Shown: in pieces, positions 24,282-39,488 of the stretch
Layout of the letters: every line of letters starts with the position of its first letter
Position numbering within the stretch: position 1 is the stretch's first letter
NCBI GenBank assembly: GCA_964512925.1
Contig: CAZEKH010000002.1
Span: forward strand, 122,505-186,504
Direction of reading: 5' to 3'
Length of the DNA: 64,000 nucleotides
From: an uncultured Candidatus Saccharibacteria bacterium
Lineage (GTDB): Bacteria; Patescibacteriota; Doudnabacteria; UBA920
Program-made: the position numbers and the translations under genes
Notes under the pieces: generated by a model
Databases searched by the model: none
The model's input: the letters and a program-made list of their open reading frames with translations, nothing else
What the model was told of the DNA's origin: nothing

Positions 24282-24307
24282 AACCCTCCACTATTTAGGA
24301 GGGTTTT
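24281..24307. terminator. Bidirectional terminator between the LysM gene and the pilus locus
   Basis: aaaccctcc-actattt-aggagggtttt. Confidence 0.65.
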
Positions 24308-24324
24308 AAAATTGTTTGTTTTTT

Positions 24325-25713
24325 TTAATAAGCTTCAACCTCTACAATTCTGGCTGTGCCTCCGACGCCGCTTGTTACATTTATTCTGATTTTTGAAGTT
24401 GTAACAAAAGGAAAAGTTATTTGCTTCCAAATTTTGTTATTACCTATTATATTTCCACCAGTAACCAGCTGCCAAGCGCTTCCATCCCAGTACTGGACCT
24501 GAAAATCAACAATGCCATAGGAGGAAAAAGTCATCGCCAAATCCGGATCAACCGGATTGGAAGCATAAGCATCCTGCAAAGTAATCACATCAATCTCATT
24601 GATATTTCTTAGGACCGGATTGGCGGCCGCGGTGTTATCCGTGAAATCAATTTGCAGCCAATCAGGCAAAACAAAGCTTGAATTCCAACCGTTGCCAGTA
24701 TCCCAATTTATACCTGTTCTATCACCGTTTATCGTTGCTGCCGGCGAAAATATACAGCAGGTATTGGAAGCCGACGCCCTGCCCCCGTTTGCCTGCAAGG
24801 CATAGTTTATGCGCGCTGAAGTTTCTCCTTCTTCCGGGATAACAACTCGAATTTTTCTCGTTACTTGGCTATTTCTGGCAGAAACATTTACCGCCGTCTC
24901 TCCTACCAAAGGGATACCTTTTGGACTTAAACCGGCAGTATCAGTAAAAGCTTCCAGCTGCACATATAAGGGATTTGTGCCGTTATAGTTATAAACTATA
25001 ATCTCCTGTTGCTTGGTAGGATCAAGAGTAAATTCACCATATAGTCCGGGGTCTAACGGGCTATTAACATAATACTTACCGTCGTTTCCATCCGGAGACC
25101 AATACTCAGTCGAAGAAACATCGCTACAGGCTGGAGTTAAATATGAAAGATTTGGATCGAACTCACAAACATAAACTGCCATTTTATCATTGTTGCCGCT
25201 GGGCAGATAAGTAAACTTTATTTTGCCGAAACCGCTTCCGGCAACGCTGCAAATCGGATCCGCGGATAAAGGATCTAAGGGGTCTGTAATAGGGCTCGGG
25301 CAAAGCAAATTAAAAAGCGGATAGCGGTTGGAGCTGGCGGCAAAGGAATTGGAACTTGCAGCAACTTTCACCTGATACACCTGCGGGGTTTCCTGGCTTT
25401 CTGTGCTGGATAAGTTAACAGCGCCCAGCAAATTGGTATAACTAAACGTACAACTGGAGCAAGTAGAGACTTTTCTTTTAATTTTAAACAAAGCTTCTTC
25501 AGTTACAGCATCCGCGCCGACAATAGCAGCTTCTGTTCTAAGTCCATCGCCCGAAACTTTTATTTCACCCAATAGAATCGCTGCAATGCTAAAACTGATG
25601 GCTAAAATAGCCGACAATATGATTATAGAAAGCAGTAAAGTCACTCCCTCTTGGGAAGACAAGGTAGATTTTTTATATTTGCTAAAAATCCAAGGTCTAT
25701 TGGGGTATATCAT
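24325..25713 (-). CDS. Large pilin-like protein with a C-terminal discoidin (F5/8 type C)-like lectin domain; candidate pilus tip adhesin
   Basis: Pilin-like hydrophobic N-terminus (EGVTLLLSIIILSAILAISF). A C-terminal ~130 aa with W/Y/G spacing (VDFQVQYWDGSAWQLV...IRINV) looks like a galactose-binding fold. Last gene of the minor-pilin block. Confidence 0.55.
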   Translation of the reverse strand: MIYPNRPWIFSKYKKSTLSSQEGVTLLLSIIILSAILAISFSIAAILLGEIKVSGDGLRTEAAIVGADAVTEEALFKIKRKVSTCSSCTFSYTNLLGAVNLSSTESQETPQVYQVKVAASSNSFAASSNRYPLFNLLCPSPITDPLDPLSADPICSVAGSGFGKIKFTYLPSGNNDKMAVYVCEFDPNLSYLTPACSDVSSTEYWSPDGNDGKYYVNSPLDPGLYGEFTLDPTKQQEIIVYNYNGTNPLYVQLEAFTDTAGLSPKGIPLVGETAVNVSARNSQVTRKIRVVIPEEGETSARINYALQANGGRASASNTCCIFSPAATINGDRTGINWDTGNGWNSSFVLPDWLQIDFTDNTAAANPVLRNINEIDVITLQDAYASNPVDPDLAMTFSSYGIVDFQVQYWDGSAWQLVTGGNIIGNNKIWKQITFPFVTTSKIRINVTSGVGGTARIVEVEAY

Positions 25714-26401
25714 ATTTATTTATACTGACTGAAGTCTGATAATAAATCTCTTTTGTTTCGCCTGTTGGCAAATTGACTGAAAAACGCATCAATATCTGGA
25801 CAAAGGGCTGTATTTTAGGGTAGTCGGAAGAATAACTGGAACAACCCGGAGGCTTTATTATATAAGGGTCACAAGTAGGCTTAACCGTGAAAGCAAGCTG
25901 GGTAATTTTAAAATTTGAAGGGTTTAAAATTTGGGGAGTATTACCTTCTTTTAAAACCACTAAAGTTCCGTTGGTATGAGTAAACCCGCTGCCCACATAA
26001 TTGCCATTTTGATCTCCGAAATATATGCATTGATGAAAGCCTTCATTGTCAATGATGCTTAGTCTGTTGTCTTTACCGTTCCCGCTGAGGCCATAATAGT
26101 TATCCCCCACATTGGCAATTTTGAGGCACGGACCAATATCTGAGCTTCTTGGCGCGTCGTGCGTACCATTCATCCCAAAATCAATCTCGCCATTTCGGAT
26201 ATTTTTTGCCAATGTTTCGGCAAAATTCCTCATTCCCTGAGAAGCTTGCCTTAAAGCTTCGCTTTTTCTGTTGATTTTTAAAACATAATTAAACAAGCTC
26301 ATCAACGAAGAAACCACAACAGCAAAAATGACCGTGGAAACTAAAATTTCCATTAAAGTAAATCCTGATCTATTTATTTTTTGCATTTTATACTGTTTCA
26401 T
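25697..26401 (-). CDS. Type IV minor pilin (prepilin-type N-terminus)
   Basis: GFTLMEILVSTVIF class III signal motif. Confidence 0.75.
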   Translation of the reverse strand: MKQYKMQKINRSGFTLMEILVSTVIFAVVVSSLMSLFNYVLKINRKSEALRQASQGMRNFAETLAKNIRNGEIDFGMNGTHDAPRSSDIGPCLKIANVGDNYYGLSGNGKDNRLSIIDNEGFHQCIYFGDQNGNYVGSGFTHTNGTLVVLKEGNTPQILNPSNFKITQLAFTVKPTCDPYIIKPPGCSSYSSDYPKIQPFVQILMRFSVNLPTGETKEIYYQTSVSINKYDIPQ

Positions 26402-26431
26402 ACTTCACGCTTCATTGTTCAATATTACCAA

Positions 26432-27157
26432 TCAGTAATTTTTCCAATTAGTTAAATACTCCTGGAGCTCCACGCGACAAGAAGCTTTGGGAATTTTCCC
26501 TACTGACTCGTCCCAATCATCGAGTTTTGGACATTTTTTAGTTTCTGACCACCAAACTCGGGAAACAATTTTAAGCCTTTGAAAATTTGTTCTATTATAC
26601 GGCTGGGTAGTAGAATCCTCTGTAATTGTAATTTTTCTGTAAAAACCCGAATTGCCATTTGAAACTCCATTTATTACATCTGACATACTGTAATACCCTG
26701 TAAAGCTTGGACTGTCAATATCGGAACGAAAATCCAGACCCCATTTACCCCCGGTTGTGTTGTCATCTTTATATTGCCAATATTTATTTAGATTGGGATC
26801 TAAGATAAGCCTGGTACTTTTATTGGCTCCCGCCTGCCTGATATCATAACCCGCATTACCTGACGGATTCAACCATTCTGGGTAGCATTTGCCATTGTTA
26901 GAACCCGACAAAAAATTATAGCAATTGGTTGCTATAGTGGATTTAAGCCAGTTAGTATCGCGCATATTTTTAAATGCTTCAATACCTTCCCTAGCCAAAG
27001 CAGTAGCAACAATTTGTTGGGTGATGTTACTGGAAGCTGATAAGGCATATATAGCTAAGCCGGTCGCAGCGGTAATACCCATTGTTAAAATAAACACCGC
27101 GGCCAAGGTTTCAATGATAGTTTGTCCAGCCTGATTTTTTTTAGAAAAATACTTCAT
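26432..27157 (-). CDS. Type IV minor pilin
   Basis: GQTIIETLAAVFIL prepilin-like N-terminus. Confidence 0.7.
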   Translation of the reverse strand: MKYFSKKNQAGQTIIETLAAVFILTMGITAATGLAIYALSASSNITQQIVATALAREGIEAFKNMRDTNWLKSTIATNCYNFLSGSNNGKCYPEWLNPSGNAGYDIRQAGANKSTRLILDPNLNKYWQYKDDNTTGGKWGLDFRSDIDSPSFTGYYSMSDVINGVSNGNSGFYRKITITEDSTTQPYNRTNFQRLKIVSRVWWSETKKCPKLDDWDESVGKIPKASCRVELQEYLTNWKNY

Positions 27158-27160
27158 ATT

Positions 27161-27883
27161 TTACTGAAAAGTAATTGCTCCCGACAAACCGTTAACTGTA
27201 ATAGTTTTATATAAGCTACCGGATTTGTTGGTCAGCCTGATAGTCATCACCGAATCCCCGCTGGCCGCAGTAGCTGAACCGCCGCCAGTATCATTACCTA
27301 CGTATTGAGTGATCTGAGCATAGTCATCGGTATTGTTTGCAAATCCATTGCTCACACAATTTTCGTTATATATTATTTTTCCATATGGGACCTTGAAGGC
27401 TAAAAGGGCGCAAGAAGAAGGAGTTTGCGAGGTAAATCCGGCCGGCCTTTGAATGCAGACACCAGAACTTAAGCAGGCGACGCTGCTATAAGCGCCAATC
27501 CTGACATCTTGTGGCAACTTTATGGTTTCTATGGTAATCAGCCTCACCGGCGGACTGGTAACATTATACACAGCCTGAACAACATATTCTGTTGGATTAT
27601 TTAGATCAAATTTTAACAAATAATATTCTGCCGGGGTATTGTATGCAACATTTCTTGAATACAAAGCGCTGCTTTGTATCTCCCTGATTTTACTTACCAT
27701 CTGACTTTGAGCCAATTTTAAATTTCTTTGCGCTCTTTGACCGGCAATGTTTGCTGTCACCAAACCCATCACAATACCCATTATGAGCAAAACCATTGTT
27801 AGCTCCATTAAAGAAAACCCAGGATTTTTTCCAAATCCTGCCAGAGCTCGCTTTAACAATGCTTTTTTATATAATATTAACAA
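27161..27883 (-). CDS. Type IV minor pilin
   Basis: GFSLMELTMVLLIMGIV prepilin motif. Confidence 0.75.
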   Translation of the reverse strand: MLILYKKALLKRALAGFGKNPGFSLMELTMVLLIMGIVMGLVTANIAGQRAQRNLKLAQSQMVSKIREIQSSALYSRNVAYNTPAEYYLLKFDLNNPTEYVVQAVYNVTSPPVRLITIETIKLPQDVRIGAYSSVACLSSGVCIQRPAGFTSQTPSSCALLAFKVPYGKIIYNENCVSNGFANNTDDYAQITQYVGNDTGGGSATAASGDSVMTIRLTNKSGSLYKTITVNGLSGAITFQ

Positions 27884-27973
27884 GCTAAATGACTTAAAAT
27901 TTTGATTTCAAAAAGTTTAAAAAGCTATTTTAAGTATAAAACAAAAAAAGTAAAAAAACAAACAAAAACTCTA

Positions 27974-28777
27974 CTAAAAACCCAAGAAATTTATGTACCA
28001 ATTAAATATTTGATCGCCGTAAAATAAGGAGATTAAAGCGCCCAGGCTTAAAAATACCCCGAAAGGCAATTTGCTCTGCAAAGTTTTTTTGCCAAAAAAT
28101 AAAAGGGGTAGGGAAACCAAAGTTCCCAAAAAAAACGACAAGAACCAGGCAACCCCGATTTTAGGCCAGGAGAGAGTCAATCCTAAAAAAAACGCGTACT
28201 TTACATCCCCAAAACCCATCCAACGTCCTTCCGAAAAATACCAAATAAAAAACAATGGTGCGGCAGCGGCAATTCCCGAAATCAGACCAAAAGCCAATTC
28301 CCCGGTTAAACTAAACCAATTGCCTGTAATAAAAACGTCTATTATCAAAAGCAAAAAGAGAATAAAAATTCCGGGGTACAATAAAACTTCATCTAAAATT
28401 AAAAAATGTTCAAAATCAATAATAGCGACAACTAAAAATACGCATAGCAATACTAAATATTTCACTAAAATTAAATACTCATAAGCTGTTTGAGGTGGAA
28501 AAAAATAATATGTTAGGCAAAATAACACTCCAGTCAAAAATTCCACTGTCGGATAACGGGGAGAAATTTTCTTTTTGCAATTTGCGCATTGTCCAAAAAG
28601 AAAAATATAGCTAAAAAGAGGAACCAACTGCCAGCCTTTCAAAGTCTGTTTGCAGCTCGGGCAATGTGATCTGCCTCTCAAAGTCTCGTCTTGAGGCATA
28701 CGTAAAATAACAACGTTTAAAAAACTTCCGAACAATAATCCTAAAATAAAATAAACCGCGTACAATATTGGCTCCAT
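27974..28777 (-). CDS. pilD: Prepilin peptidase (A24 family, with N-terminal Zn-binding CxxC pairs)
   Basis: CPSCKQ...CANCKK motif and a polytopic membrane domain with the FGDVK aspartate motif. Confidence 0.85.
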   Translation of the reverse strand: MEPILYAVYFILGLLFGSFLNVVILRMPQDETLRGRSHCPSCKQTLKGWQLVPLFSYIFLFGQCANCKKKISPRYPTVEFLTGVLFCLTYYFFPPQTAYEYLILVKYLVLLCVFLVVAIIDFEHFLILDEVLLYPGIFILFLLLIIDVFITGNWFSLTGELAFGLISGIAAAAPLFFIWYFSEGRWMGFGDVKYAFFLGLTLSWPKIGVAWFLSFFLGTLVSLPLLFFGKKTLQSKLPFGVFLSLGALISLFYGDQIFNWYINFLGF

Positions 28778-28791
28778 ATATATTTACAATT

Positions 28792-30807
28792 TTATTCAAA
28801 AATCAAAGTTTCCAGCACAGTTGGTATATAAACCTGCTTAAAATCCTTGGCTTGTTTAGAGCTTTGAGCTATATGCTTGACCAGCTCCATACCCGGATAT
28901 TTTTGAAAAGCTTGATTTAAAATTATCTTCATCTGTTTCTCCATCCCTTCCAGCTGGTAAATCCTTGCCAAAAGAAGCATTGAAGTTATAGAGTATGAAC
29001 TCAGCCTAACTCCGACTTTGGCATATTCCCTTGCTTCTTTGAGCCTTCCGTCTTCAGCGATATAAAAAGCCTGGTGAGTCCACCTCAGGCCATAGAATTT
29101 GTCTTTTTCCAAAGCAGAATTCATTTCTTCAATGGATTTTTTTAAAAATTCTCGCTGGCCGGTCCTGTCATAAGCTAAAAAATTCAGCTTTGAAGCCAAA
29201 TAATCAGTTTTAGCATCCTGAGGGATCAGCCGTTTAAACTTCGAAATTTTTTGTTCCAATACCTTTTCGTCAACGCCATCTCTTAGCATATCTGAAGCGA
29301 TTTTATAACTTTGCGACGCCAAATTATTTGGCGCAAGCCTGCTGGACCATAAAAGCAGTTTTGAAGAAGCCTGAAATTTTTGTTGAAAAAATTTGGTCCG
29401 CCCTTGCATAAACAAATGATCAGCCAAAGTATATGAAATTCCAACCATTAACAAACAAGCAGCTAAAAACCCTAATAACATTCTAGTTACCGGATTAAGA
29501 CCAATATTTGTTGGGAGGCATCTTTTTGAAAACATCACTGCCAGATAAAAACCAAGCAGTAAAAAACAAGCCGAGGATACCGGATTAAAAGCAGCTGAAA
29601 TATACCAAGCTAAAACCCCCAAACCAATTGATAGTAAATAAAATTTTTCCTCAATTGCCAGATTATAATCCTCTTCAGACAGAATTTTTTGCCTTAAACT
29701 CCTGACAACTAAAAATAAACCGGAAAAGCCAAAGGCTAAAAACCAGATTAGAAATGGCAATCCTAAAGTAGCGCCCATATTTAAAAACAAATTATGAGCA
29801 TCGTCAAAAACTCCGTTTTGGTCCGATAAAGCCGCGCTTCTTTGATTTTCAAAAAATAACTGGAAATTTCCAGGACCAACTCCGGTTAGCGGATGCTGGG
29901 TTATAGCCGTAAGGGCGATGTCCCACACAAAAAATCTTAAATTTATATTGGTTTCTGACAAATTTAAGCTTGCTTGCAGGCTTTGCGGCCGTGAAATTGA
30001 GTTAGTCTGCCAAAGCAAAGCCAAACTAAAAAACCCAAGAAATAGCGCGGCTAATATCTTTCTTAAGTTAAAACGAAAAATTGCCAATGATACGGGCGTC
30101 ACGACCGCCAAAAAAACCAAAGCCAGCCAGCCTGCCCTACTGGACAACAGACAAATTCCTGCAACAATAAAAAAACTGCCAAAAATATAATATACCCTTG
30201 CCTTCAAAGATTTGGCAGAAAAAATCAACGGCAAAGACAAAGGCAAAACCGCTGATAAAAACATTGTGGAAAAATTCGGATTGCCTAACAAACTGGGCGC
30301 GCGGGCAAACACTGTTGTATCCCCAACCCCGTTATAAAAACCTACACCATAAGACTGGAGTACGGCAATCAGGCCGACAACAGTAGCATCAAAAAAAAGT
30401 ACTTTATAAAATACACTTAATTTTTTATAAATATTTTGCGTGGAAAAAAAAATAATTGTGAAAACAAATACAAACCAAAAAATAAAACTATTATCCAGCC
30501 TTGGGTAACTGCCTAACAAGCTGTTAATCAAATTTTGAGAGTAAATTAAACTTGGCAATAAAAGCAATGCCCCTAAAAGACAAAACCCAATAAATTTTTT
30601 ATTTGATTGCAAAACTTTAGCCTTTATACTGACCACAATCGGCGCTGACAAACTTACAAACCAAACTGCCAGTTTTACTGTTTCAAATTTTTCATAGGAA
30701 AGTACACTGAAAGCCAATGGGACTAAAAGTAGCAAAAAAAACAAGGCTGAAAAAGTCTGGTCCTCATAAAAAGGCAGTCTTGGAATTTTTATTTGTTTAA
30801 ACATCAA
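28792..30807 (-). CDS. Polytopic membrane protein with an O-antigen ligase (Wzy_C) domain and C-terminal TPR repeats; candidate pilin O-oligosaccharyltransferase
   Basis: Twelve or more TM segments, a central periplasmic loop, and a TPR-like C-terminus. Sits between pilD and the major pilin gene. Confidence 0.55.
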   Translation of the reverse strand: MMFKQIKIPRLPFYEDQTFSALFFLLLLVPLAFSVLSYEKFETVKLAVWFVSLSAPIVVSIKAKVLQSNKKFIGFCLLGALLLLPSLIYSQNLINSLLGSYPRLDNSFIFWFVFVFTIIFFSTQNIYKKLSVFYKVLFFDATVVGLIAVLQSYGVGFYNGVGDTTVFARAPSLLGNPNFSTMFLSAVLPLSLPLIFSAKSLKARVYYIFGSFFIVAGICLLSSRAGWLALVFLAVVTPVSLAIFRFNLRKILAALFLGFFSLALLWQTNSISRPQSLQASLNLSETNINLRFFVWDIALTAITQHPLTGVGPGNFQLFFENQRSAALSDQNGVFDDAHNLFLNMGATLGLPFLIWFLAFGFSGLFLVVRSLRQKILSEEDYNLAIEEKFYLLSIGLGVLAWYISAAFNPVSSACFLLLGFYLAVMFSKRCLPTNIGLNPVTRMLLGFLAACLLMVGISYTLADHLFMQGRTKFFQQKFQASSKLLLWSSRLAPNNLASQSYKIASDMLRDGVDEKVLEQKISKFKRLIPQDAKTDYLASKLNFLAYDRTGQREFLKKSIEEMNSALEKDKFYGLRWTHQAFYIAEDGRLKEAREYAKVGVRLSSYSITSMLLLARIYQLEGMEKQMKIILNQAFQKYPGMELVKHIAQSSKQAKDFKQVYIPTVLETLIFE

Positions 30808-31196
30808 TACTTTATTGTGATTGTATTCTGACCTTTGGATGCAACATTAAAATCATCTGGCAGGCAAAAATTTATTGTAGCCATTTTTTTGTCTGCCCTG
30901 GTGTAATTTAAAGGCTCAGGACACTCTTTAATTTTAAAAGTATTCGGCTTGCCGGACAAATATTGGGAAATAACTTTTTCGTTGCCAAACTCATTAGCCG
31001 TGGGCAGGCGGTCGTTATCTTTATAAAAAAAATCCAGCGCCATTTTCATTTCCTGCGCCGCCATAAAAACCGCCTCGCTTTCTGCCTCTCTTCTTCCCGA
31101 GCTTGCCCCTAAAAAAATACTTATAAATAAAAAAGCAGCCACTCCGATGACTGTTATAAAAATTTTTATCTGATTGTTTGTCATTTGAAAATCCAT
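30804..31196 (-). CDS. Divergent pilin paralogue lacking the prepilin cleavage motif
   Basis: GRREAESEAVFMAAQEMKMALDFFYKDNDRLPT aligns with PilA SARAKSRDAKRLADVRQLASAMELIFNDAGAYPT. The N-terminus has a TM helix but no G-1/F+1/E+5. Confidence 0.5.
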   Translation of the reverse strand: MDFQMTNNQIKIFITVIGVAAFLFISIFLGASSGRREAESEAVFMAAQEMKMALDFFYKDNDRLPTANEFGNEKVISQYLSGKPNTFKIKECPEPLNYTRADKKMATINFCLPDDFNVASKGQNTITIKY

Positions 31197-31225
31197 CTCA
31201 AGGCGGCTTTTAAAGCCGCCTTGAG
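31197..31225 (-). terminator. Terminator after the major pilin gene
   Basis: ctcaaggcggcttt/taaagccgccttgag perfect hairpin. Confidence 0.7.
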
Positions 31226-31232
31226 AAGAAAC

Positions 31233-31799
31233 TTACTGAATACCAGCAGGGGTTAAAGTGTGCACACCAGCAGCATATCCGCCAGTTGCGTCACCCAAAC
31301 AGAAAGTAATTGTATAGTTAGCGCCTACATCAGGAGCTGCGTACTGATAGCTGTTTGTAGTTGATGTACAAGCAGCGCCAGAACGGTTGTCAGGAGGAGT
31401 CGGAGCTGAAGGAATTAACCCGATATAAGTCGGGGTTAAAGTATAACCGGTTGCTCCGGTTGTAGCTGTTATAGACCTAAGTATACCACCAGCTGCGCTA
31501 CCCATAACATAAGCATCTCCAGTTGTGTCGCAAGCTCCGCTTGTACCACAAGTCGGATAAGCGCCGGCATCGTTGAAGATAAGTTCCATAGCTGAAGCCA
31601 GCTGTCTTACGTCAGCAAGCCTCTTGGCGTCCCTGGACTTGGCTCGAGCCGAGTTTAGGGCAAGTAAAACCACAGATGCCAAAAGACCAATAATGGCAAT
31701 AACCACTAAAAGTTCAATTAAAGTAAAACCTTTTATGTTTTTGTTTCTCAATTTTTTCACCCCCGTTCTTAAAATGTTTGAAAATATTGCTACTTTCAA
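31233..31799 (-). CDS. pilA: Type IVa major pilin
   Basis: KGFTLIELLVVIAIIGLLA canonical class III signal. The leader length is uncertain, since the first in-frame ATG gives 24 aa. Confidence 0.85.
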   Translation of the reverse strand: MKVAIFSNILRTGVKKLRNKNIKGFTLIELLVVIAIIGLLASVVLLALNSARAKSRDAKRLADVRQLASAMELIFNDAGAYPTCGTSGACDTTGDAYVMGSAAGGILRSITATTGATGYTLTPTYIGLIPSAPTPPDNRSGAACTSTTNSYQYAAPDVGANYTITFCLGDATGGYAAGVHTLTPAGIQ

Positions 31800-31868
31800 T
31801 CAATTAAATTTATTATAAAACATCCGTAAAATAACCGCAAGTTAAGTTATACACATTATTCATTTTAA

Positions 31869-33074
31869 CTAACCAGCTGTGCTGGCTAAGTTATAAATTG
31901 GTAGCAGTACCCCTGCCACCAAAGCTCCCACTCCCAAACCTAAAATAATCATTATCAAAGGTTCCAATAGGGTGGTTAAAGTGGCAATCTTTGCATCTAC
32001 TTCTTTTTCATAAAAAGACGCGAGTTTATCCATAATATCGTCCAATTGAGCAGTCTGCTCGCCTACCCGCACCATTTGTGTGACAATATTAGGAAACTCC
32101 CTATGCCCGGACAATCCCTCGCTGATGCTTTTTCCAGCCGTAATCTTACTGACCGTATCGTTTAAAATTTCCCGATATATCACATTGTTGATAACATCTC
32201 CGACTATCTGCAAAGCTTTGATAATCGGGATGCCGCCGATAACTAAAGTGGATAAATTTCGGGAAAATCTGGCTAAATATATTTTTTCAAAAACATCTCC
32301 CAGTATAGGTAAATGAATTTTCATTTTATCCCAGTGGTACCTGCCAAATTCGGTAGACACAAAAAACTTTACTCCCATAGCGATGGCTATGAAAGCTAAA
32401 ATCACCATCCACCAAAACTTGTCAAAAAAATGCGTAAAAGAAATAAGTACTTTGGAGACCGTAGGAAGCTCCCCACCCTGCTCTTCTAAAACCGCGGTTA
32501 ATTTTGGCAAAACAAACTTAAACATCAAAACTCCGACAATGCCCAAAGCGCCCAAAACAAAAAGCGGATAAGTCAAGGCGCTTTTTACCTTTCCCCTTAA
32601 CTCATAGTCCTTTTCCAGCTGGGCTGCCAGATAATTCAGTGATTTATCCAAATTTCCCGATACTTCTCCTGAACGAACCAAGCTGGTATAAACATTGGTA
32701 AAAACCTTATCGTGCTTGGTCATTGCCAAGGATAAACTTTCACCATTTTCCACCGAAGAAATCAAATCTCTGGTAATAGTTAAAAGATACCGATTGCTAA
32801 TTTGTTCTTCTAAAATCCGCAAAGCCTGAATCAACGGCACACGGGCAGAAATCAAGGTTGCCAATTGTCTGGAAAATAAAACCACGTCCTTATTGCTGAC
32901 TGACTTGCCAAATGGATTTAGTTTTTGAAAGACATCTTCCTCTTTCTTGGCTAAAGAAAGAATCGTCAGCATATTTTCCGCCAAAAGCTGTTCAGCCCTG
33001 GCCTGGTCGGTTGCTACAACTATGCCTGACTTAATTTTTCCATCTTGAGTTTTTGCTTTATAAAGAAATTTCAT
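31869..33074 (-). CDS. pilC: Type IV pilus inner-membrane platform protein (GspF family)
   Basis: Two GspF repeats and three TM helices. 401 aa. Confidence 0.9.
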   Translation of the reverse strand: MKFLYKAKTQDGKIKSGIVVATDQARAEQLLAENMLTILSLAKKEEDVFQKLNPFGKSVSNKDVVLFSRQLATLISARVPLIQALRILEEQISNRYLLTITRDLISSVENGESLSLAMTKHDKVFTNVYTSLVRSGEVSGNLDKSLNYLAAQLEKDYELRGKVKSALTYPLFVLGALGIVGVLMFKFVLPKLTAVLEEQGGELPTVSKVLISFTHFFDKFWWMVILAFIAIAMGVKFFVSTEFGRYHWDKMKIHLPILGDVFEKIYLARFSRNLSTLVIGGIPIIKALQIVGDVINNVIYREILNDTVSKITAGKSISEGLSGHREFPNIVTQMVRVGEQTAQLDDIMDKLASFYEKEVDAKIATLTTLLEPLIMIILGLGVGALVAGVLLPIYNLASTAG

Positions 33075-33104
33075 AAACTTTACTGATTACTGATTTACTG
33101 ACAA

Positions 33105-34175
33105 CTAACTTACTAAAGATAGAAAATAATCATTGTCCAAAACGTGATTTTGAGCGACTTCAAAATCCACCTGACCCTGCTTGACCAGACCAGCCAAAGT
33201 TTTATCCAAAGGCACCATACCTTCTTCCAAAGAAGTATGTATGATATTGGCAATTTCATAAATTTTATTGTCTCTGATCACATTTCTAACCGCGTGATTG
33301 GCAACCATTATTTCATATGCCGGAACCCGCCCGCCGCCGATTTTAGGTAGAAGCCTTAAAGAAATAACTCCAGTTAACACAGAAGCCAGCTGTCCGCGCA
33401 CCTGCTGCTGCTGGCCCGATGGAAACACGTCAACAATACGGTCAATGCTTTGAGCCGCGTCATTGGTATGCAAAGTGGCAAAAACCAAGTGTCCGGTTTC
33501 AGCTATGGTCAAAGCTGCGGACACAGATTCAAAGTCGCGCATCTCGCCAAGCAAAACCACGTTAATATCTTCACGAAGCGCGGCTTTTAAAGCTCCCTCA
33601 AAAGTCGGCGTATCCAGGTATAATTCGCGCTGTGAAATAATTGAGCGATTCGGAGTAAACATATATTCCACCGGATCTTCAATAGTCAAAATATGCTCCG
33701 CGCGAGTATTGTTTATTTCATTGATCATCGCAGCTAAAGCGGTTGATTTACCGTGCCCCGTCGGTCCGACTACCAAAACCAACCCCTGTCGCCTCTCAAT
33801 AAATTTTCGGAAAATCGGGGGCAGGTTCAATTCTTCGATGGTTTTAATATGATTCGGGATGGTTCTTAGCGCCACGCCCAGCACGCCCTTTTGGCGGTAA
33901 GCATTTACGCGAAAACGGATGTTGTCCTTAAAAGCGTAGGAAAAATCAATATGCATCTGCTTTTCAAACAAGCCTTTTTGCACATCGGTCAAAAGAATGT
34001 TTAGCAAATCCAAAATCGTATCATTGCTCAATACCTGATAACTATCCAAACGAATCAATGCCGTATCCACGCGAATAATAGGCGGCTCTCCGACCATTAA
34101 ATGTAAATCCGAAGCATCTCTTTCTAAAACCAATGACAACAATTTATTGAGTTCTAACTCGCTGGCTTTATACAT
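33105..34175 (-). CDS. pilT: Twitching-motility retraction ATPase
   Basis: Walker A GPTGHGKST. About 356 aa, which is PilT size rather than PilB size. Confidence 0.85.
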   Translation of the reverse strand: MYKASELELNKLLSLVLERDASDLHLMVGEPPIIRVDTALIRLDSYQVLSNDTILDLLNILLTDVQKGLFEKQMHIDFSYAFKDNIRFRVNAYRQKGVLGVALRTIPNHIKTIEELNLPPIFRKFIERRQGLVLVVGPTGHGKSTALAAMINEINNTRAEHILTIEDPVEYMFTPNRSIISQRELYLDTPTFEGALKAALREDINVVLLGEMRDFESVSAALTIAETGHLVFATLHTNDAAQSIDRIVDVFPSGQQQQVRGQLASVLTGVISLRLLPKIGGGRVPAYEIMVANHAVRNVIRDNKIYEIANIIHTSLEEGMVPLDKTLAGLVKQGQVDFEVAQNHVLDNDYFLSLVS

Positions 34176-34193
34176 AGTATAAAAATTTTAAAA

Positions 34194-34625
34194 TTAAATA
34201 TTTAATATTTGGCAAGCTAACACCACTACATCTTCAGGCCGGCTTAAACGTTTATCCAAATGCCCACAAACCCCGACTGACATAATTTTTTTTAAGGTAG
34301 TATGACTTGCGTCAAAACCCAAAGTCATAATTTTTAACCGAGGAAAATTAGTTCTCAGATTTAACAAAAAATCTTCAGCTTCTTCGGGCTGCTTGGAAAA
34401 AAAATCCAAGCTTAATACTGCTAAAAACGGCTGTTTTTCCTTTATTGCCGGATGAATCGCATCCAGATTCGAGCAGGCATGGATTTGCATTTTTTTTTCG
34501 GCAAAATGCCTCTCGTATATGCCAAGCAAACTTGAAGACGGCTCTGCCACCAAAATCACTCCGGAAAAACCAGGGTTGGATATCAACTCGGAAATATCAA
34601 ATTTTTGTTTAAATATATACGCCAT
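34194..34625 (-). CDS. Stand-alone, probably degenerate CheY-like receiver domain protein
   Basis: Spacing of a receiver fold (ILVAEP..., LAVLSLD, IMTLG, K) but without the acidic DD pair. Sits between pilB and pilT. Confidence 0.45.
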   Translation of the reverse strand: MAYIFKQKFDISELISNPGFSGVILVAEPSSSLLGIYERHFAEKKMQIHACSNLDAIHPAIKEKQPFLAVLSLDFFSKQPEEAEDFLLNLRTNFPRLKIMTLGFDASHTTLKKIMSVGVCGHLDKRLSRPEDVVVLACQILNI

Positions 34626-34626
34626 A

Positions 34627-36378
34627 TTATTCCGTAGTTACTCTCATCACTTCGTCCAGAGTGGTCTCGCCCCGAATAATTTTTATTAAACCGTCCTGCT
34701 TCATTGTTATCATCCCCAAAGAAGCCGCGTGCTCGTACATTTTTCTTGAAGAAGATTTTGACAGCACTAATTCCTGTAGTTCAGCGTCAACTGGCAAAAC
34801 CTCATAAATGCCCATACGACCTGCATAACCTGAATTGCCGCATTTTTCACAGCCATGTCCTTTAAAAGTCTTTAGAGTCGCCATATCCAGTCCTTCCAAA
34901 TACTCGTCCGGAACCCCTTTGAGCCCGTCTCGGATTTCTTTTTCGATTCCAGGCAAAATCGGCACTTCCCCTCTGCAGTTAGAACAGATTTTTCTTACCA
35001 ATCTTTGAGCCATCACCACATTGATTGAGGAAGCGAGTAAAAAAGGTTCAATGCCCATATCAATCATTCTCGGCATCGCCCCAATGGAGTTATTGGTATG
35101 CAAAGTGGAAAATACCAAATGCCCGGTCAAGGCAGCGTGCACTGCCAGCTCAGCTGTTTCTTTGTCTCGAATTTCACCCACCATCACCACATTGGGATCT
35201 TGCCTAAGTATGCTCCGAAGACCGGCCGCAAAAGTCAGACCGATTTCCGGATTAATCTGGCTTTGATTTATCCCTTCAATAAAATATTCCACGGGGTCTT
35301 CCAAAGTGATAATGTTGACAGTCGGGGAATTTAAAATGGATAAAATTGCATAAAGCGTGGTAGATTTTCCGCTACCGGTCGGTCCGGTAATTAGAAAAAT
35401 ACCGTGAGTTTTTTTAATGTTTTCTTTTATCCATACCAAAGCGCGCCCGCGTATGCCCAGCTGTTCCAAAGTCGGAACCGAACCGGTCTTATCCAAAATA
35501 CGCATCACAATTTTTTCCCCGTAAATCAAAGGTAAAATGGAAACACGCAAATCAACGGATTTTTTTCCTACATCCATATGAAATCTTCCGTCTTGCGGCA
35601 ACCTGGATTCGTCAATTTTTAAATTGGATAAAATTTTAATTCTTGTAATAATCGCCGCGTGGACGTTTCTAGGCAACATCAAAGATGTATGCAAAATTCC
35701 ATCTATGCGGTATCTGACTCGCACATCTTTTTCCGAAGGTTCAATGTGTATATCTGAAGCATTACCCTCAATGGCATTAGTTAAAATAACTTCCACAATC
35801 TTTATAATCGGTGCTTCTTCAATGACCTGGGGAATATTGGATTTTTCAGCTTCCTGAGCAGACTTTAAACCCCCGCTTTCTTTGGTCTGAATATCTTTTA
35901 GAGCATCGCCCACTACTTTTTTTAGGTTCTTTTTCTTTCCGGAGGCAACTTCAACACCGCTCTCTGAGGCTAAATAAAGCTGAATTTGAAGATTTTGTTT
36001 TTGGCCCAAAAATTCCAAGGCTTCCAGAGCGGACAAATTTCCAGGGTTGGTTATGGCAACCTTTAAAATGCGGTCGCGATTTTCAAACGGAATAAAATTA
36101 TAAAAATTCACCGACTCCGGAGGAATGAGATTTAAAACAGCAGGAGGAATCGTAATTTGTTTTAAATCCACATAAGGTATGTTAAAAAAGGCGGCTTTAG
36201 CTTTGGCTAAATCCTCTTCTTCGATTATTTTTCGCGCAAGAAGCAGCTGGCTCACATTTTGTCCGGTTTCTTTTTCCAGCTTCTCCAGCTGTAAAATCGT
36301 ATCCTCGCTGACAAAACCATTGCTGACTAAAAATTGCCCGAAAGTTTGCGCTACGTTAGTTTTAGCAGCGGTTTCCAT
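34627..36378 (-). CDS. pilB: Type IV pilus assembly ATPase (GspE family) with an N-terminal GSPII_E_N domain and tetracysteine motif
   Basis: Walker A ITGPTGSGKST and CSNC...CEKC. Confidence 0.9.
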   Translation of the reverse strand: METAAKTNVAQTFGQFLVSNGFVSEDTILQLEKLEKETGQNVSQLLLARKIIEEEDLAKAKAAFFNIPYVDLKQITIPPAVLNLIPPESVNFYNFIPFENRDRILKVAITNPGNLSALEALEFLGQKQNLQIQLYLASESGVEVASGKKKNLKKVVGDALKDIQTKESGGLKSAQEAEKSNIPQVIEEAPIIKIVEVILTNAIEGNASDIHIEPSEKDVRVRYRIDGILHTSLMLPRNVHAAIITRIKILSNLKIDESRLPQDGRFHMDVGKKSVDLRVSILPLIYGEKIVMRILDKTGSVPTLEQLGIRGRALVWIKENIKKTHGIFLITGPTGSGKSTTLYAILSILNSPTVNIITLEDPVEYFIEGINQSQINPEIGLTFAAGLRSILRQDPNVVMVGEIRDKETAELAVHAALTGHLVFSTLHTNNSIGAMPRMIDMGIEPFLLASSINVVMAQRLVRKICSNCRGEVPILPGIEKEIRDGLKGVPDEYLEGLDMATLKTFKGHGCEKCGNSGYAGRMGIYEVLPVDAELQELVLSKSSSRKMYEHAASLGMITMKQDGLIKIIRGETTLDEVMRVTTE

Positions 36379-36386
36379 AAGCTTTT

Positions 36387-36683
36387 TTATTTAATCTCGT
36401 CTTCAAACGGGATCACCAAATCCTGCTCAGCAGTTCCCAAATCATTATCTAAGTCAATTTTAGGAAAATTGACTTGTTTAAAATTAAAAGAAGAATTTTT
36501 AAAAGCTTTATCTATATCAAAAGACGCTCCTTGGGGCAAAATTTCCTCATTTTGTACATTTGCCCCTTCCGTTGCCAGCTCTGGAGCGCTGCCGCCCTGA
36601 AAAAGACCCTTATACAAAACTATGCCGCTGATCAAAAAACATACGGCAATAACTAGAATTTGAATGATATTTTTTTTCTGCAT
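36387..36683 (-). CDS. Small membrane-anchored protein in the pilus operon (PilP-like position)
   Basis: One N-terminal TM helix and 98 aa. The position between pilO and pilB is the only support. Confidence 0.4.
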   Translation of the reverse strand: MQKKNIIQILVIAVCFLISGIVLYKGLFQGGSAPELATEGANVQNEEILPQGASFDIDKAFKNSSFNFKQVNFPKIDLDNDLGTAEQDLVIPFEDEIK

Positions 36684-36695
36684 AACATTTTGTTG

Positions 36696-37325
36696 TTAGG
36701 GGGCGAAATAATAAGTTTTAAAATTAATCCTAAGCCCTAACTGCCCTTTCCCGGAAGGTGTCATATCCATCCCTGTGATATCCATCAGCCTGCCGGAGTT
36801 TTCTATTTTCTGAAGGAATGATTTGAGTTGAAAAAAATCTCCATAAGCATTGACATTGCAAGATAAAGTTTTCAAAGTTCTCTTGGCATAAAACGGATCA
36901 GTGATAATTTTTTGATCATTGCCATACACCTGCTCTTCTTTGGCAGTAACCGCCACATCGCCTACAGTCACACCTGACTCATTTGCCAAGTTTTGTACTA
37001 AAATTTGAACTTTTGTCCGACGACTGTCTAAAGGCAAGGCTTCGTCTAACATTGCCAACTCAGCGGGAAATTTGCCCATCTTGGCAATCAATCCTTTTAA
37101 AGAAGCCGTTTGCGCCTGGATAGTCCCGCGTTCCTTGACTAAAACTGCCAATTCCGCGCGCTTTTCAGCCAATTCCGCGCGCTTAGGCTTGATCATAAAC
37201 CAAAAAAACAACGCAATAAAAATCAAAACCGCCAGAATTTGAATATTCGTGGATTTAAAAGATCTAACTTCCACGGAAGTTGCAGATTCTTTAGCCGAAC
37301 TTTTTGGCAGGTTAAAATTCATCAT
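36696..37325 (-). CDS. pilO: Type IV pilus assembly protein PilO-like
   Basis: TM helix, coiled coil (AELAEKRAELAVL) and a periplasmic domain. Gene order pilM-N-O. Confidence 0.6.
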   Translation of the reverse strand: MMNFNLPKSSAKESATSVEVRSFKSTNIQILAVLIFIALFFWFMIKPKRAELAEKRAELAVLVKERGTIQAQTASLKGLIAKMGKFPAELAMLDEALPLDSRRTKVQILVQNLANESGVTVGDVAVTAKEEQVYGNDQKIITDPFYAKRTLKTLSCNVNAYGDFFQLKSFLQKIENSGRLMDITGMDMTPSGKGQLGLRINFKTYYFAP

Positions 37326-37333
37326 ATAAAAAT

Positions 37334-37921
37334 TTATTTGCTTGGCTGGGCAACAAGCCCCTCTTTTCTCAAAATCTGGGAATTAAAATTCATTCTAAAA
37401 TTTACATTTAAATTGCTCTGTCCCAACTTTTCAATTTTATTGATAGCCCCGATTTTAACATTTGAAAAGCTTCGCATAAACTCTAAAGTGTCAAAAAGCT
37501 GGAGCAATTTGTCCAATTCCTGGTTATCTTTCAAATTCACGCTCAAAGCCAAACTGCCATCCTCAGCAACCCGGATATACAAATAATGCGACCCTTTAAT
37601 GCTGAGGTCTGCGATAGCCTTAAAAAAATTGGAAAAATATGGATGCGAAGCGCTGAGATTTTGATAGGCTTTCAGCTGTCCCTGCCTGGATAAAAATTCT
37701 TTCCGCTGGGCCATATTTAAAGCCAGCTTTTTTTCCTGTGCCACCGCGGCTTTGGTTTTCGGAATTTCATTTGTTACTTTTTTTGTATCTAAAAATATCC
37801 AGAGATAATAAGCCACAAACAGCAAGGCAATAAAAGAAACTATTTTTAGTCCGGAGCCCCGGATTTTTAAAAATAAGTCTTCAGTCGAGCTTTTTTGTTT
37901 TAATAAATTGATTTGTGCCAC
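37334..37921 (-). CDS. pilN: Type IV pilus assembly protein PilN-like
   Basis: MAQINLL N-terminus and a single TM helix. Directly follows pilM. Confidence 0.65.
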   Translation of the reverse strand: MAQINLLKQKSSTEDLFLKIRGSGLKIVSFIALLFVAYYLWIFLDTKKVTNEIPKTKAAVAQEKKLALNMAQRKEFLSRQGQLKAYQNLSASHPYFSNFFKAIADLSIKGSHYLYIRVAEDGSLALSVNLKDNQELDKLLQLFDTLEFMRSFSNVKIGAINKIEKLGQSNLNVNFRMNFNSQILRKEGLVAQPSK

Positions 37922-37947
37922 AAAATTTTGATTTCTTTATTTTGAAA

Positions 37948-38976
37948 TTATTCTGCTCTTAAAGCGAGGCCGATTGCCACAGGTAAATTGCGGGAATAAC
38001 GTTTTAAAACCTGCTCGGCTGAGACTGAAAACGCCACATTTTTCAACGGATTGCCCAATTCCACTGGCATTTTCAGATCCGCAAAAAAATCAATAATGCC
38101 TGGCATATTGCTTCCGCCGCCAGCCAAAATTACCTTATCTAAGCGGATATCCTGCGATACATAAATCGTTAACAGCTGCTTTACCTCATTTTTCACAATA
38201 TTTAACACCGGCTTAACCGCTTCGGGGATAAAAGAAGGGCCATTGATGCCAAAATCTTTCTTAAACTGTTCGGCTCGGCTATGATTTATTCCTAAAGTTT
38301 CTGCAATTTTTGAAGTAATGGTTTCTCCTCCCACATTCAGATTGCGACTCAATTTTAAAACTCCATTTTCAATAATATTCAAACCAGTACTCTTGGCGCC
38401 TATATCTATTATAACACAATTTATCTTTTCTCCCCCGATCAGACTGCGGATTAAAGCCAAAGCTTCAATCTCAGCCGCCTCAGGATGCAAACCAGATATT
38501 TCAAAAAGCTTGCTATAATTCTCTTTAATCTGCTTAGGCACGGCAATCAGCAGAATTTTTTGGCTGGATGTTTGCGCATTTGTATCTGTAACAGTCCAAG
38601 ACAAGTCTATTTCATCCAATGCCAATGGCACGTATTTTTTGGCTTCATACTCCACAGCCCCGTCAAGCTCTTTATCGTTCATCATCGGCAGTTCAATCAC
38701 TGAAGAGAAAACCGCGCTATTGGGAAAACTAATCACAGATCTTTGAGCGCTGATACCCGCTTTTTTTATAAGGGATTTGATCAACTCTGCCATCCTGGCT
38801 AAAGATTCCGGATCGTTTTTTCCGCTTAAAGCTTCCGGAATATTGACTATCCCATAACTCTCCAAAACCCTCTCTCCCGAAGACTTCTGTCCCACCTGGG
38901 CGAGTTTAATGCTGGAGGTTCCGATATCAACCCCTAAAACAGAGCTATGTTTTTTAAACAAACCGGCTAAAAACAT
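37948..38976 (-). CDS. pilM: Type IV pilus assembly protein PilM (actin-like ATPase)
   Basis: VLGVDIGTSSIKLAQV phosphate-1 motif of FtsA/PilM. Confidence 0.85.
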   Translation of the reverse strand: MFLAGLFKKHSSVLGVDIGTSSIKLAQVGQKSSGERVLESYGIVNIPEALSGKNDPESLARMAELIKSLIKKAGISAQRSVISFPNSAVFSSVIELPMMNDKELDGAVEYEAKKYVPLALDEIDLSWTVTDTNAQTSSQKILLIAVPKQIKENYSKLFEISGLHPEAAEIEALALIRSLIGGEKINCVIIDIGAKSTGLNIIENGVLKLSRNLNVGGETITSKIAETLGINHSRAEQFKKDFGINGPSFIPEAVKPVLNIVKNEVKQLLTIYVSQDIRLDKVILAGGGSNMPGIIDFFADLKMPVELGNPLKNVAFSVSAEQVLKRYSRNLPVAIGLALRAE

Positions 38977-39108
38977 TTTAAGATAAGATGAATATTTTTT
39001 TTAGTTTCTGAAACTGAATTTTACCTTTAAATCATAATATATTTTTGCCTTATTGTCAAAAAATCCCCTTGCGGGGATAAGTCTGTTTGTCTTTTTTTAA
39101 TATATAAA

Positions 39109-39184
39109 TGGTGGACCCTACCGGGCTCGAACCGGTCACCCCCACATTGCAAATGTGGTGCTCTACCAAATGAGCTAAGGGCCC
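39109..39184 (-). tRNA. tRNA-Ala (anticodon TGC)
   Basis: The reverse complement GGGCCCTTAGCTCA...TTTGCAA...GGTTCGAGCCC...CCACCA folds as a cloverleaf with the G3:U70 identity pair and an encoded CCA. Confidence 0.9.
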
Positions 39185-39214
39185 TAATCATTCTGAATTA
39201 AATGCTCAATATGA

Positions 39215-39439: not shown

Positions 39440-39488
39440 ACTTTATTTTAACTGCTTAACATTTACAATTTTTACTCTTTGACCGTTA

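Follow-up and report, generated by a model that had tools for sequence, protein, structure and literature searches.

A secretin-less type IVa-like pilus operon in an uncultured Saccharibacterium, with a candidate pilin-glycosylating enzyme and a pseudo-receiver

What kind of pilus is encoded by a type IV pilus (T4P) gene cluster that has no secretin gene beside it, and what might its nonstandard members contribute? This question is raised by a locus on contig CAZEKH010000002.1 from an uncultured bacterium, of which a 64-kb stretch of DNA, called "the window" throughout, was analyzed. Sixteen genes occupy positions 24325 to 38976 on the minus strand of the window, and their spacing of -17 to +90 nucleotides (nt) indicates a tight operon. 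We consider it highly likely that in this region of the chromosome a Saccharibacterium encodes a retractable type IVa-like pilus, the counterpart of T4P-1 of Nanosynbacter lyticus TM7x, in an operon extended by three extra genes, and that this pilus operates by the mechanism outlined below. The whole analysis is based on domain content, motifs, synteny, conserved catalytic residues, and fold predictions; all activities, the glycosylation target, the location of proteins at the pilus tip, and the regulatory role are what we infer from these.

Pilus machinery and its closest counterparts

The genes run in the order pilM, pilN, pilO, a 98-aa open reading frame (ORF), pilB, a 143-aa ORF, pilT, pilC, the major pilin gene, a 130-aa ORF, the gene for a 671-aa Wzy_C protein, pilD, three minor-pilin genes, and the gene for a 462-aa modular pilin (Table 1). 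This operon arrangement, with all expected parts, is far beyond chance. The parts include a PilB-type ATPase, PilT, PilC, PilD, a pilin with a class III signal, and the PilM-PilN-PilO set, which are those expected of type IVa-like machinery. The initial annotation of this DNA had described a co-directional T4P cluster with PilM/N/O, PilB, PilT, PilC, the pilin, PilD, and three minor pilins, and coordinates, Pfam profiles, and motifs agree with that description. Its proposed Pfam check yielded matches to T2SSE, T2SSF, N_methyl, Peptidase_A24, PilM, and PilO but none for PilN. Its remark that there are nonstandard members was also confirmed; we identify a Wzy_C protein with tetratricopeptide repeats (TPRs), here called Wzy_C-TPR, a pilin paralogue, and a pseudo-receiver.

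Table 1. Features of the pilus operon and its borders, listed in the direction of transcription (window coordinates)
Feature	Coordinates	Strand	Basis or remarks
Sigma-70-like promoter TTGACA-17-TATGAT	39031..39059	-	Consensus match only; just upstream of pilM
pilM, actin-like cytoplasmic assembly protein, 342 aa	37948..38976	-	Pfam PilM_2 1e-50, FtsA 3.4e-16
pilN, bitopic, 195 aa	37334..37921	-	Position, one transmembrane helix (22-46), N-terminal MAQINLL
pilO, 209 aa	36696..37325	-	Pfam PilO 2.7e-5, T2SSM 1.2e-4; one transmembrane helix
98-aa bitopic protein	36387..36683	-	Position of unnamed TM7x_00430
pilB, extension ATPase, 583 aa	34627..36378	-	T2SSE 1.7e-132, MshEN 1e-12; Walker A GPTGSGKS; CSNC/CEKC tetracysteine
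Stand-alone pseudo-receiver (receiver fold), 143 aa	34194..34625	-	Between pilB and pilT
pilT, retraction ATPase, 356 aa	33105..34175	-	T2SSE 4.9e-39; AVRNVIRD at residue 295
pilC, platform protein, 401 aa	31869..33074	-	T2SSF x2, 2.8e-60
Major pilin	31233..31751	-	Leader MRNKNIKG, then G/FTLIE (slash, cleavage site); N_methyl 2.6e-9; open frame reaches 31799
14-bp GC-rich hairpin	31196..31226	-	Directly 3' of pilin stop codon; z -6.1
130-aa bitopic pilin paralogue without prepilin cleavage motif	30804..31196	-	hhalign versus major-pilin family
Wzy_C (O-antigen-ligase superfamily) membrane enzyme with C-terminal TPR, 670 aa	28792..30804	-	Wzy_C 2e-18
pilD, prepilin peptidase/N-methyltransferase, 267 aa	27974..28777	-	A24_N_bact 2e-31, Peptidase_A24 3.7e-9; CPSC/CANC; GFGDVK
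Minor pilin 1, 240 aa, G/FSLMEL	27161..27883	-	N_methyl 2e-4; TIGR01708 1.2e-7 (weak GspH-like, N terminus only)
Minor pilin 2, 241 aa, G/QTIIE	26432..27157	-	N_methyl 1.9e-4; TIGR02523 3.7e-6 (weak PilV-like N terminus)
Minor pilin 3, 234 aa, G/FTLMEI	25697..26401	-	N_methyl 3.3e-6; weak ComGE/GspJ/HpsC N-terminal matches
PilX1-like modular pilin, 462 aa	24325..25713	-	N-terminal helix and beta domain (1-293); discoidin/CBM32-like module (~300-462)
Palindromic 14-bp hairpin with A/T runs on either side	24276..24311	.	Between the convergent 462-aa gene and LysM gene

PilT has neither an N-terminal MshEN domain nor a tetracysteine motif, and its AVRNVIRD sequence represents the AIRNLIRE-type motif of dedicated retraction ATPases. 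PilN has no Pfam match, and its naming rests on its position (that of TM7x pilN1), its transmembrane (TM) helix, and its INLL motif, which at the N terminus of PilN is the motif that binds PilM. The 98-aa protein had no family match in Pfam and NCBIfam searches, is conserved in the relative loci L001 and L002, and is found at the same position in L007, L008, L010, L012, and L014. A PilP-like role was considered for this ORF, with nothing in support.

For the major pilin, the TTG at 31751 is the most likely start codon, as evidenced by a Shine-Dalgarno sequence (GGGGGTG) and an independent 172-aa gene call; removal of the 8-aa leader leaves a mature pilin of 164 aa with 4 Cys residues and 19.5% Ser plus Thr. 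It is 73 to 76% identical to the pilins of L001 and L002, compared to 27 to 38% for the accessory proteins, making it the best-conserved protein of the block save for the ATPases, and it contains a conserved LIPSAPTP(P/A)D stretch. Hairpins of unrelated sequence lie 3' of the pilin stop codon in L001 (~11808-11845), L002 (~11818-11860), and L008 (~9403-9447) as well, followed by a U-run in L001 and L002. A hairpin at this place agrees with the common arrangement in which the pilin gene is strongly expressed and read-through past it is attenuated. The 3' arm of the window hairpin stops at the A of the 130-aa gene's ATG, and so the hairpin could also occlude that start.

Subtyping of the three minor pilins was tried and abandoned: the NCBIfam matches (GspH, PilV, ComGE, and GspJ) are below cutoff and confined to the common N-terminal helix, and so we leave these proteins without subtype names. 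An odd combination occurs in L012, where the third minor pilin (376 aa; 13557-14687) pairs a PDDEXK_3 nuclease-like Pfam match with N_methyl.

From these parts, a working cycle can be proposed. PilD would trim the 8-residue prepilin leader at G/FTLIE and presumably methylate the new N terminus, and the PilB ATPase, acting via the PilC platform, would move pilins from the cytoplasmic membrane into the filament. PilM, clamped to the INLL N terminus of PilN, would form an alignment complex with PilN, PilO, and perhaps the 98-aa protein. The three minor pilins and the PilX1-like protein may prime the filament and remain at its tip, and PilT would disassemble the filament, resulting in twitching and in the cell being pulled to a tip-bound target.

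To which organism and lineage does this machine belong? A scan with one genome per species found PilC to be 78% and 70% identical to homologs in two metagenome-assembled genomes (MAGs) labeled "uncultured Candidatus Saccharibacteria" and 59% identical to that of a Patescibacteria-group MAG. Because the nearest matches are MAGs with this label, the host is assigned to Candidatus Saccharibacteria, a lineage of the candidate phyla radiation (CPR), in line with the CPR guess of the initial annotation. The 16-gene order is repeated in L001, L002, L007, L008, L010, L012, and L014, and wherever the contig extends far enough (L007, L008, L010, and L012), the flanks are kept also, with guaA and tRNA-Ile/tRNA-Ala upstream and a convergent LysM gene and ligA downstream. 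The shared order and flanks indicate, therefore, a vertically inherited core feature of the lineage and not an island. PilC is 35% identical to that of an Actinoplanes locus (L004), which was excluded from the gene-order comparison on account of high-GC ORF noise without gene calls.

The closest described counterpart comes from TM7x, which has four T4P loci (Grossman et al., ISME J 2025, PMC12206443). Its locus one (TM7x_00415-00475) consists of pilM1, pilN1, pilO1, an unnamed gene, pilB1, pilT, pilC1, pilA1, pilD, pilV1, pilZ1, pilW1, and pilX1, and Saccharibacteria outside clade G1 have locus one only (PMC12206443). The pilus cluster is also conserved across TM7 genomes (Xie et al., PNAS 2022, PMC9894109). 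With TM7x locus one and the T4P1 locus of Southlakia epibionticum (SEML1_0104-0116), the window locus shares the phylum; the order pilM-N-O-small ORF-pilB-pilT-pilC-pilA-pilD-three minor pilins-PilX1; a single retraction ATPase and no secretin; and a last gene whose product has a carbohydrate-binding-like beta-sandwich and a noncanonical signal. The difference lies in gene content. The TM7x locus has 13 genes, with pilB1 and pilT consecutive (positions 78 and 79 of the TM7x gene table) and likewise pilC1, pilA1, and pilD (80, 81, and 82). The window locus has 16, since a pseudo-receiver gene separates pilB from pilT and the genes for the pilin paralogue and Wzy_C-TPR separate the pilin gene from pilD. 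We regard the system, with considerable confidence, as a secretin-less, PilB/PilT-driven, retractable type IVa-like pilus equivalent to TM7x T4P-1.

This equivalence has consequences for function. In TM7x, the pilin genes of T4P-1, the thick pilus, could not be deleted, and this pilus is essential; twitching is attributed to T4P-1; and host binding is assigned mainly to the second pilus, T4P-2 (PMC12206443). The initial annotation had suggested a pilus specialized for attachment, and this suggestion stands in part: the lectin-like module of the putative tip protein favors it, but TM7x T4P-1 is inferred to drive twitching, with binding left to T4P-2. Three points weigh against our account of the system. 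TM7x host binding lies mainly with T4P-2 and not with the orthologous T4P-1, the case for orthology to TM7x is built on which genes are present and in what order and not on sequence comparison, and the secretin-less claim covers 64 kb of the genome only.

That last point bears on whether the locus might instead be part of an ordinary diderm type IVa pilus (T4aP), or of a type II secretion system (T2SS), with its secretin and pilotin genes elsewhere in the genome. The window was scanned for secretin and competence functions using every ORF of at least 300 aa that was not merely antisense to an annotated gene. No match to Secretin (PF00263) was found in these large ORFs, in agreement with the initial annotation, and PilQ, PilP, PilF, and TsaP are all missing from the window. 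Diderm bacteria do not invariably carry pilQ beside their pilin and ATPase genes, and the 64 kb examined leave this much to the diderm explanation. Nevertheless, pilQ and pilP in diderm T4aP loci normally stand directly after pilMNO, and in the window pilO is followed by the 98-aa ORF and then pilB. The taxon, too, is Saccharibacteria, where the envelope has no outer membrane and a secretin would therefore not be needed. For another CPR lineage, the lack of pilQ was noted in a Microgenomates genome (PMC7143001), and neither pilQ nor any secretin is named as a component in the papers on the pili of TM7x and TM7i. The presence of PilT and PilM speaks against a T2SS. We judge a diderm-type system most improbable. 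The ATPases, the platform, the peptidase, PilMNO, the short-leader pilin with G/FTLIE, and a four-gene minor-pilin block are shared with the T4aP of Pseudomonas, Myxococcus, and Neisseria; unlike in those diderms, pilB, pilT, pilC, pilD, and pilMNO lie in a single operon in the window, and PilQ, PilP, PilF, and TsaP are missing.

The T4P of monoderms such as Streptococcus sanguinis and Clostridium resemble the window locus in having PilB, PilT, PilC, PilD, and PilMNO without a secretin. Adhesive modules grafted onto pilins are known there as well, S. sanguinis PilB being an example (PMC8179133), and the window locus is alike in this respect. It differs from monoderm T4P in lineage and gene order, in carrying its lectin module on a protein at the GspK/PilX position that has no Glu5, and in having a candidate glycosylation module inside the operon.

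Could the locus encode a dedicated competence pilus, a ComG-like device for DNA uptake, as opposed to a motility and adhesion pilus? Saccharibacteria are naturally competent. In S. epibionticum, comEC is needed for transformation and dispensable for growth, and most T4P genes there belong to essentiality class I (Wang et al., Cell 2023, PMC10633639). Also, TM7x T4P-2 mutants stay competent, which keeps T4P-1 as a candidate DNA receptor (PMC12206443), and the pilins of the window have weak ComG-type N-terminal matches. These matches are confined to the shared N-terminal helix, however, and the locus has pilT, pilMNO, and a modular pilin with a lectin-like module. A competence pilus is characterized by linkage to comEC and comF and by lack of PilT; here, pilT is present, and comEC, comF, and dprA are missing from the 64-kb window, with no competence-channel domain in the scanned large ORFs. 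A comEC-linked context, which the initial annotation had said would mark a competence-only pilus, is thus not what the window holds. Moreover, because comEC is dispensable for growth of S. epibionticum and the T4P genes are essential, the essential role of T4P there is not competence. A dedicated competence pilus is very unlikely, although a role in DNA uptake as such is neither supported nor excluded by current evidence.

A candidate pilin oligosaccharyltransferase and a coupled pilin paralogue

The largest addition to the TM7x-type locus is Wzy_C-TPR, the gene of which starts with the ATG at 30804. Among solved structures, only the O-antigen ligase WaaL (7tpg_B, E value of 1.4e-6) was matched. 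An alignment of 25 family members revealed that R223, R290, D334, D335, H337, and N338 are invariant, and R223, R290, and H337 align with R191, R265, and H313 of WaaL. In an AlphaFold model (predicted local distance difference test [pLDDT], 88.2; predicted template modeling score [pTM], 0.88), nine TM helices precede the catalytic loop (residues 272 to 348), four follow it, making 13, and a TPR domain spans residues 477 to 651; Foldseek matched the latter to MamA, TTC0263, and the TPR of OGT. The helix count from a cytoplasmic N terminus and the Lys/Arg-rich short loops (positive-inside rule) place the TPR domain outside the cell, on the side of the catalytic loop, and so we take this domain to be probably extracytoplasmic.

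The family is large, and its genomic setting is constant. A profile search recovered at least 150 clusters at 50% identity, ~640 to 690 aa in length, down to an E value of 1e-91. In 11 of 11 contexts, including those of members with E values of 7e-100 and 5e-93, the gene lies directly after the major pilin gene, with or without the small paralogue, and in 10 of them pilD comes next, either directly or past one small ORF. In L011, which has no 130-aa paralogue, the Wzy_C-TPR gene is followed not by pilD but by a GT2 glycosyltransferase gene (8413-9300), where the contig ends.

What might such an enzyme do in a pilus operon? All known O-linking oligosaccharyltransferases (OTases), namely PglL, PglS, TfpO, and TfpM, have a Wzy_C domain with an essential His, and pilin-specific OTases are encoded just downstream of their own pilin (Knoot et al., PMC9829042). 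Internal sequons are the targets of PglL and PglS, the latter of which has a larger periplasmic domain at its C terminus (PMC9829042). Like TfpO (PilO), TfpM, PglS, and PglL of Proteobacteria, Wzy_C-TPR is a polytopic protein with Wzy_C and the conserved His and Arg, encoded just 3' of a type IV pilin; like PglL and PglS in particular, it is predicted to have a sizeable C-terminal extracytoplasmic domain. Two marks of O-OTases are found: Wzy_C with the catalytic His and conserved Arg residues and, as in the pilin-specific classes, a place next to the pilin gene, here in every one of the 11 contexts. Unlike those enzymes, Wzy_C-TPR has a ~200-aa TPR domain, undescribed in those families, and no detectable PglL_A, and unlike the Proteobacteria that encode them, its host has neither an outer membrane nor O-antigen. 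The pilins differ too, since the window pilin is without the C-terminal Ser/Thr of TfpO and TfpM substrates. It ends in ...TPAGIQ, as do the pilins of L001, L002, and L012, and the L011 pilin ends in ...AGMQ; the TfpO/TfpM mode, in which a C-terminal Ser/Thr is modified, was ruled out by the conserved ...GIQ end. We know of no lipid A-core in the monoderm-like Saccharibacteria that could accept O-antigen, and for this reason a pilin O-OTase that acts on an internal site is the most economical reading of the protein. On this sequence evidence, we lean slightly toward a function in pilin glycosylation. Wzy_C-TPR would then most likely move a glycan linked to undecaprenyl diphosphate to an internal Ser or Thr of the pilin at the outer face of the membrane.

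Wzy_C-TPR might also be a Wzy-type polymerase or ligase for a cell-surface polysaccharide, joining it to peptidoglycan, lipid, or an S-layer protein, in which case its place in the operon would reflect coregulation. Wzy_C is common to O-antigen polymerases, ligases, and OTases, the sole solved relative found is the ligase WaaL, the best NCBIfam match is the IctB family and not an OTase, and the PglL_A domain of Pfam is missing; TPR domains are known in exopolysaccharide export proteins too. Against this explanation stand the invariant position next to the pilin gene, a pattern of adjacency that is the same as for TfpO, TfpM, and PglS, and the translational coupling of the Wzy_C gene to the pilin paralogue. 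Also, with the exception of the GT2 gene in L011, the operon contains no further polysaccharide genes. We therefore think a polysaccharide polymerase or ligase unlikely.

Several observations nonetheless count against pilin glycosylation as the function of Wzy_C-TPR. Of the Pfam domains, only Wzy_C passed an E value of 0.01, with no sign of PglL_A or any other domain specific to OTases, and for want of the PglL_A signature we keep the protein out of every named OTase family. Since O-antigen polymerases and ligases have a Wzy_C domain too, a glycan or a wall polymer is another conceivable acceptor. The pilin end, ...PAGIQ, excludes the TfpO/TfpM mode, and no sequon is known. The topology of the TPR domain, moreover, is a deduction from helix counts and charge bias and not from model coordinates.

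The 130-aa protein encoded between the pilin and Wzy_C-TPR is a paralogue of the pilin itself. It matches the body of the major pilin by hhalign (probability of 95.4%, E value of 2e-8) and has an FCL motif in common with it, but a plain TM helix (residues 7 to 35) takes the place of G/FTLIE; because of this replacement, cleavage by PilD and the usual entry into the filament are not expected. The stop codon of its gene overlaps the start of the Wzy_C gene. Most relatives have the paralogue, including L012, where the ORF is present though not in the gene calls, and it is absent in L011. Translationally coupled and uncleavable, the paralogue may serve as a partner or decoy for the Wzy_C enzyme, or as an acceptor, but any such role is speculation.

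The literature that we searched contained no paper joining Patescibacteria, pilin, and O-antigen ligase, and the papers on TM7x, TM7i, and S. epibionticum mention no ligase, OTase, or response regulator in the locus. For TM7x, the authors went no further than predicting sites of O-glycosylation, and they called both pilin glycosylation and the glycosylation machinery of Saccharibacteria unexplored (PMC12206443). As a tentative proposal, one about which we remain somewhat doubtful, Wzy_C-TPR may represent a further class of pilin-linked O-OTase, specific to Saccharibacteria/Patescibacteria, whose extracytoplasmic TPR domain would read an internal pilin site, perhaps together with the uncleavable paralogue. 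The ancestral T4P-1 would then have been glycosylated and lectin tipped, and the lack of both the glycosylation module and the pseudo-receiver in oral G1 strains such as TM7x would be due to secondary loss.

A modular pilin with a putative tip location and a pseudo-receiver between the ATPases

The protein encoded by the last gene is pilin-like, as the initial annotation had called it, by its predicted N-terminal helix, its invariant Gly23 followed by VTLLL, and its position, but it has no N_methyl match. There is no Glu at +5, a lack that is typical of GspK/PilX-type proteins, and the gene is the last of a four-gene minor-pilin block, which is the PilX/GspK position. A structural model (pLDDT, 71.7) consists of a 60-residue helix (20 to 80), a beta domain, a flexible linker, and a beta-sandwich, and Foldseek matched this beta-sandwich to CBM32 and chitosan-binding modules at template modeling scores (TMt) of 0.6 to 0.7. 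TM7x PilX1 also has a carbohydrate-binding-module-like beta-jelly-roll (PMC12206443).

The two halves of the protein appear to have separate histories. Its N-module (~290 residues) is shared with Patescibacteria proteins; in some it stands by itself (~275 aa), and in others a LamG, PA14, or DUF2341 module is attached. No Pfam match was obtained for this module in 32 homologs, nor was there a PDB profile match, and assigning it to GspK or PilX by sequence was dropped, since it has no detectable sequence similarity to solved GspK or PilX. Its C-module (~160 residues; 24325-24810) shares 46 to 55% identity with discoidin (F5/8 type C) domains from unrelated bacteria, the matches being to Acidobacteria (Aridibacter and Pyrinomonadaceae) and to RHS-repeat and peptidase proteins. 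These identities are higher than those of the N-module to its own orthologs: residues 1 to 293 are 40% identical to the L001 ortholog (698 aa), and the rest of the protein shows no identity with it. That the C-module is closer to unrelated proteins than the N-module is to orthologs suggests recent acquisition or exchange of the module. F5_F8_type_C was found in 16 of 32 aligned homologs, and the C-terminal module of the last gene varies by genome, with discoidin in the window and in L012, LamG in L007 and L010, and other modules or none elsewhere among the relatives.

By analogy, we take the 462-aa protein for a modular pilin that sits at the tip, bears an interchangeable lectin head, and is the counterpart of TM7x PilX1. 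At the tip, the discoidin/CBM32-like module would bind a host or surface carbohydrate. A point against this placement is that, with an N-module that has no detectable sequence similarity to solved GspK or PilX, the tip location rests on gene position and the TM7x analogy.

The remaining extra gene encodes a stand-alone pseudo-receiver. A profile of three orthologs matched many receiver (REC) domains in the PDB, with YycF at an E value of 9.5e-6, and the match to Pfam Response_reg has an E value of 0.019; some family members carry a precomputed PF00072. Across 21 members aligned with YycF, the acidic pair DD is replaced by E-P in nearly all, and at the position of the phospho-acceptor the members have S, N, C, or D, with Ser in the window protein. 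Since the window protein keeps neither the acidic pocket nor the acceptor Asp, it is a phosphorylation-independent pseudo-receiver. The family has its own motifs as well, namely an N-terminal extension, MAYxFKQKFN, and a C-terminal LMSAGVxxHxxRRLSRPQDL.

Single REC folds are tied to T4P function in other bacteria, examples being the CheY-like PilG and PilH and the pseudo-receiver FrzS of Myxococcus xanthus. The FrzS REC is among the profile matches of the window protein (2gkg/2i6f, E value of 0.027), and FrzS, too, is not known to have a functional phospho-acceptor. Unlike PilG, PilH, and FrzS, the window pseudo-receiver is encoded between pilB and pilT, has the family-specific terminal motifs, and is linked to no chemosensory system. 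Its gene position makes it conceivable that the protein biases extension versus retraction, but we would not favor this role.

Operon borders, neighboring genes, and significance

Upstream of pilM, the promoter-like sequence in Table 1 is the best sigma-70-like site of the region, and it follows the hairpin and T-run (terminator-like) of a tRNA-Ala gene. At the other end, the palindromic hairpin is likely to be a bidirectional terminator of the operon.

The tRNA-Ala and tRNA-Ile genes (39109-39565), which are normally 16S-23S spacer tRNAs, adjoin pilM upstream on the same strand. The 23S (17224-20855) and 5S (16917-17033) genes lie ~18 kb downstream on the same strand, with the pilus operon, LysM, and ligA in between, and the window has no 16S gene. 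In L001, L002, L007, and L008, the tRNA pair is on the strand opposite pilM and in reversed order; in L008, ligA is followed by proB/proC/proA and not by 23S. The 23S match measures 3,632 nt against a 2,925-nt model, which leaves roughly 700 nt as insertions. As the cause of this length, a group I intron or other Rfam family was sought, with no match at an E value of ≤0.01 in 17224-20855. A 74-aa hydrophobic ORF (39215-39439) lies between tRNA-Ile and tRNA-Ala, and L008 has a GIY-YIG gene in the equivalent spacer.

Farther away, a block of low GC content (0.33 to 0.36; 42354-47075) encodes a ResIII-type helicase/restriction subunit (752 aa), a DUF3800 protein, and an N6/N4 DNA methylase (517 aa) and looks like a type III restriction-modification island. 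Three large, probably surface-exposed or secreted proteins are encoded beyond it: a 1,474-aa protein with LamG and DUF2341 (52170-56594), an S8 subtilase (56893-58470), and a 1,018-aa LCAT-like lipase with an Ig-like domain (58798-61854). The pairing of LamG and DUF2341 is also the C-terminal module of one PilX1-like homolog.

A complete secretin-less T4P locus in the CPR is known biology, because TM7x locus one and S. epibionticum T4P1 have already been described and studied genetically. The basic picture of Saccharibacteria pili is unchanged; the window is a new member of a known pilus system, and its novelty is smaller than the initial annotation implied. The 16-gene form is widespread in public data and absent from the literature that we searched, and its three extra genes are absent from TM7x.

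Of all surface organelles, T4P have the strongest support as a basis of the epibiotic life of Saccharibacteria, and T4P genes are essential in both strains that are amenable to genetics. The main value of this locus is that it supplies a candidate pilin-glycosylating enzyme inside the pilus operon of a lineage whose glycosylation machinery the TM7x authors called unexplored. It also supplies a candidate regulator, encoded exactly between the extension and retraction ATPases. Finally, the lectin modules of the putative tip protein (discoidin, LamG, and PA14) are swapped between genomes, and they are a plausible determinant of host or surface specificity.

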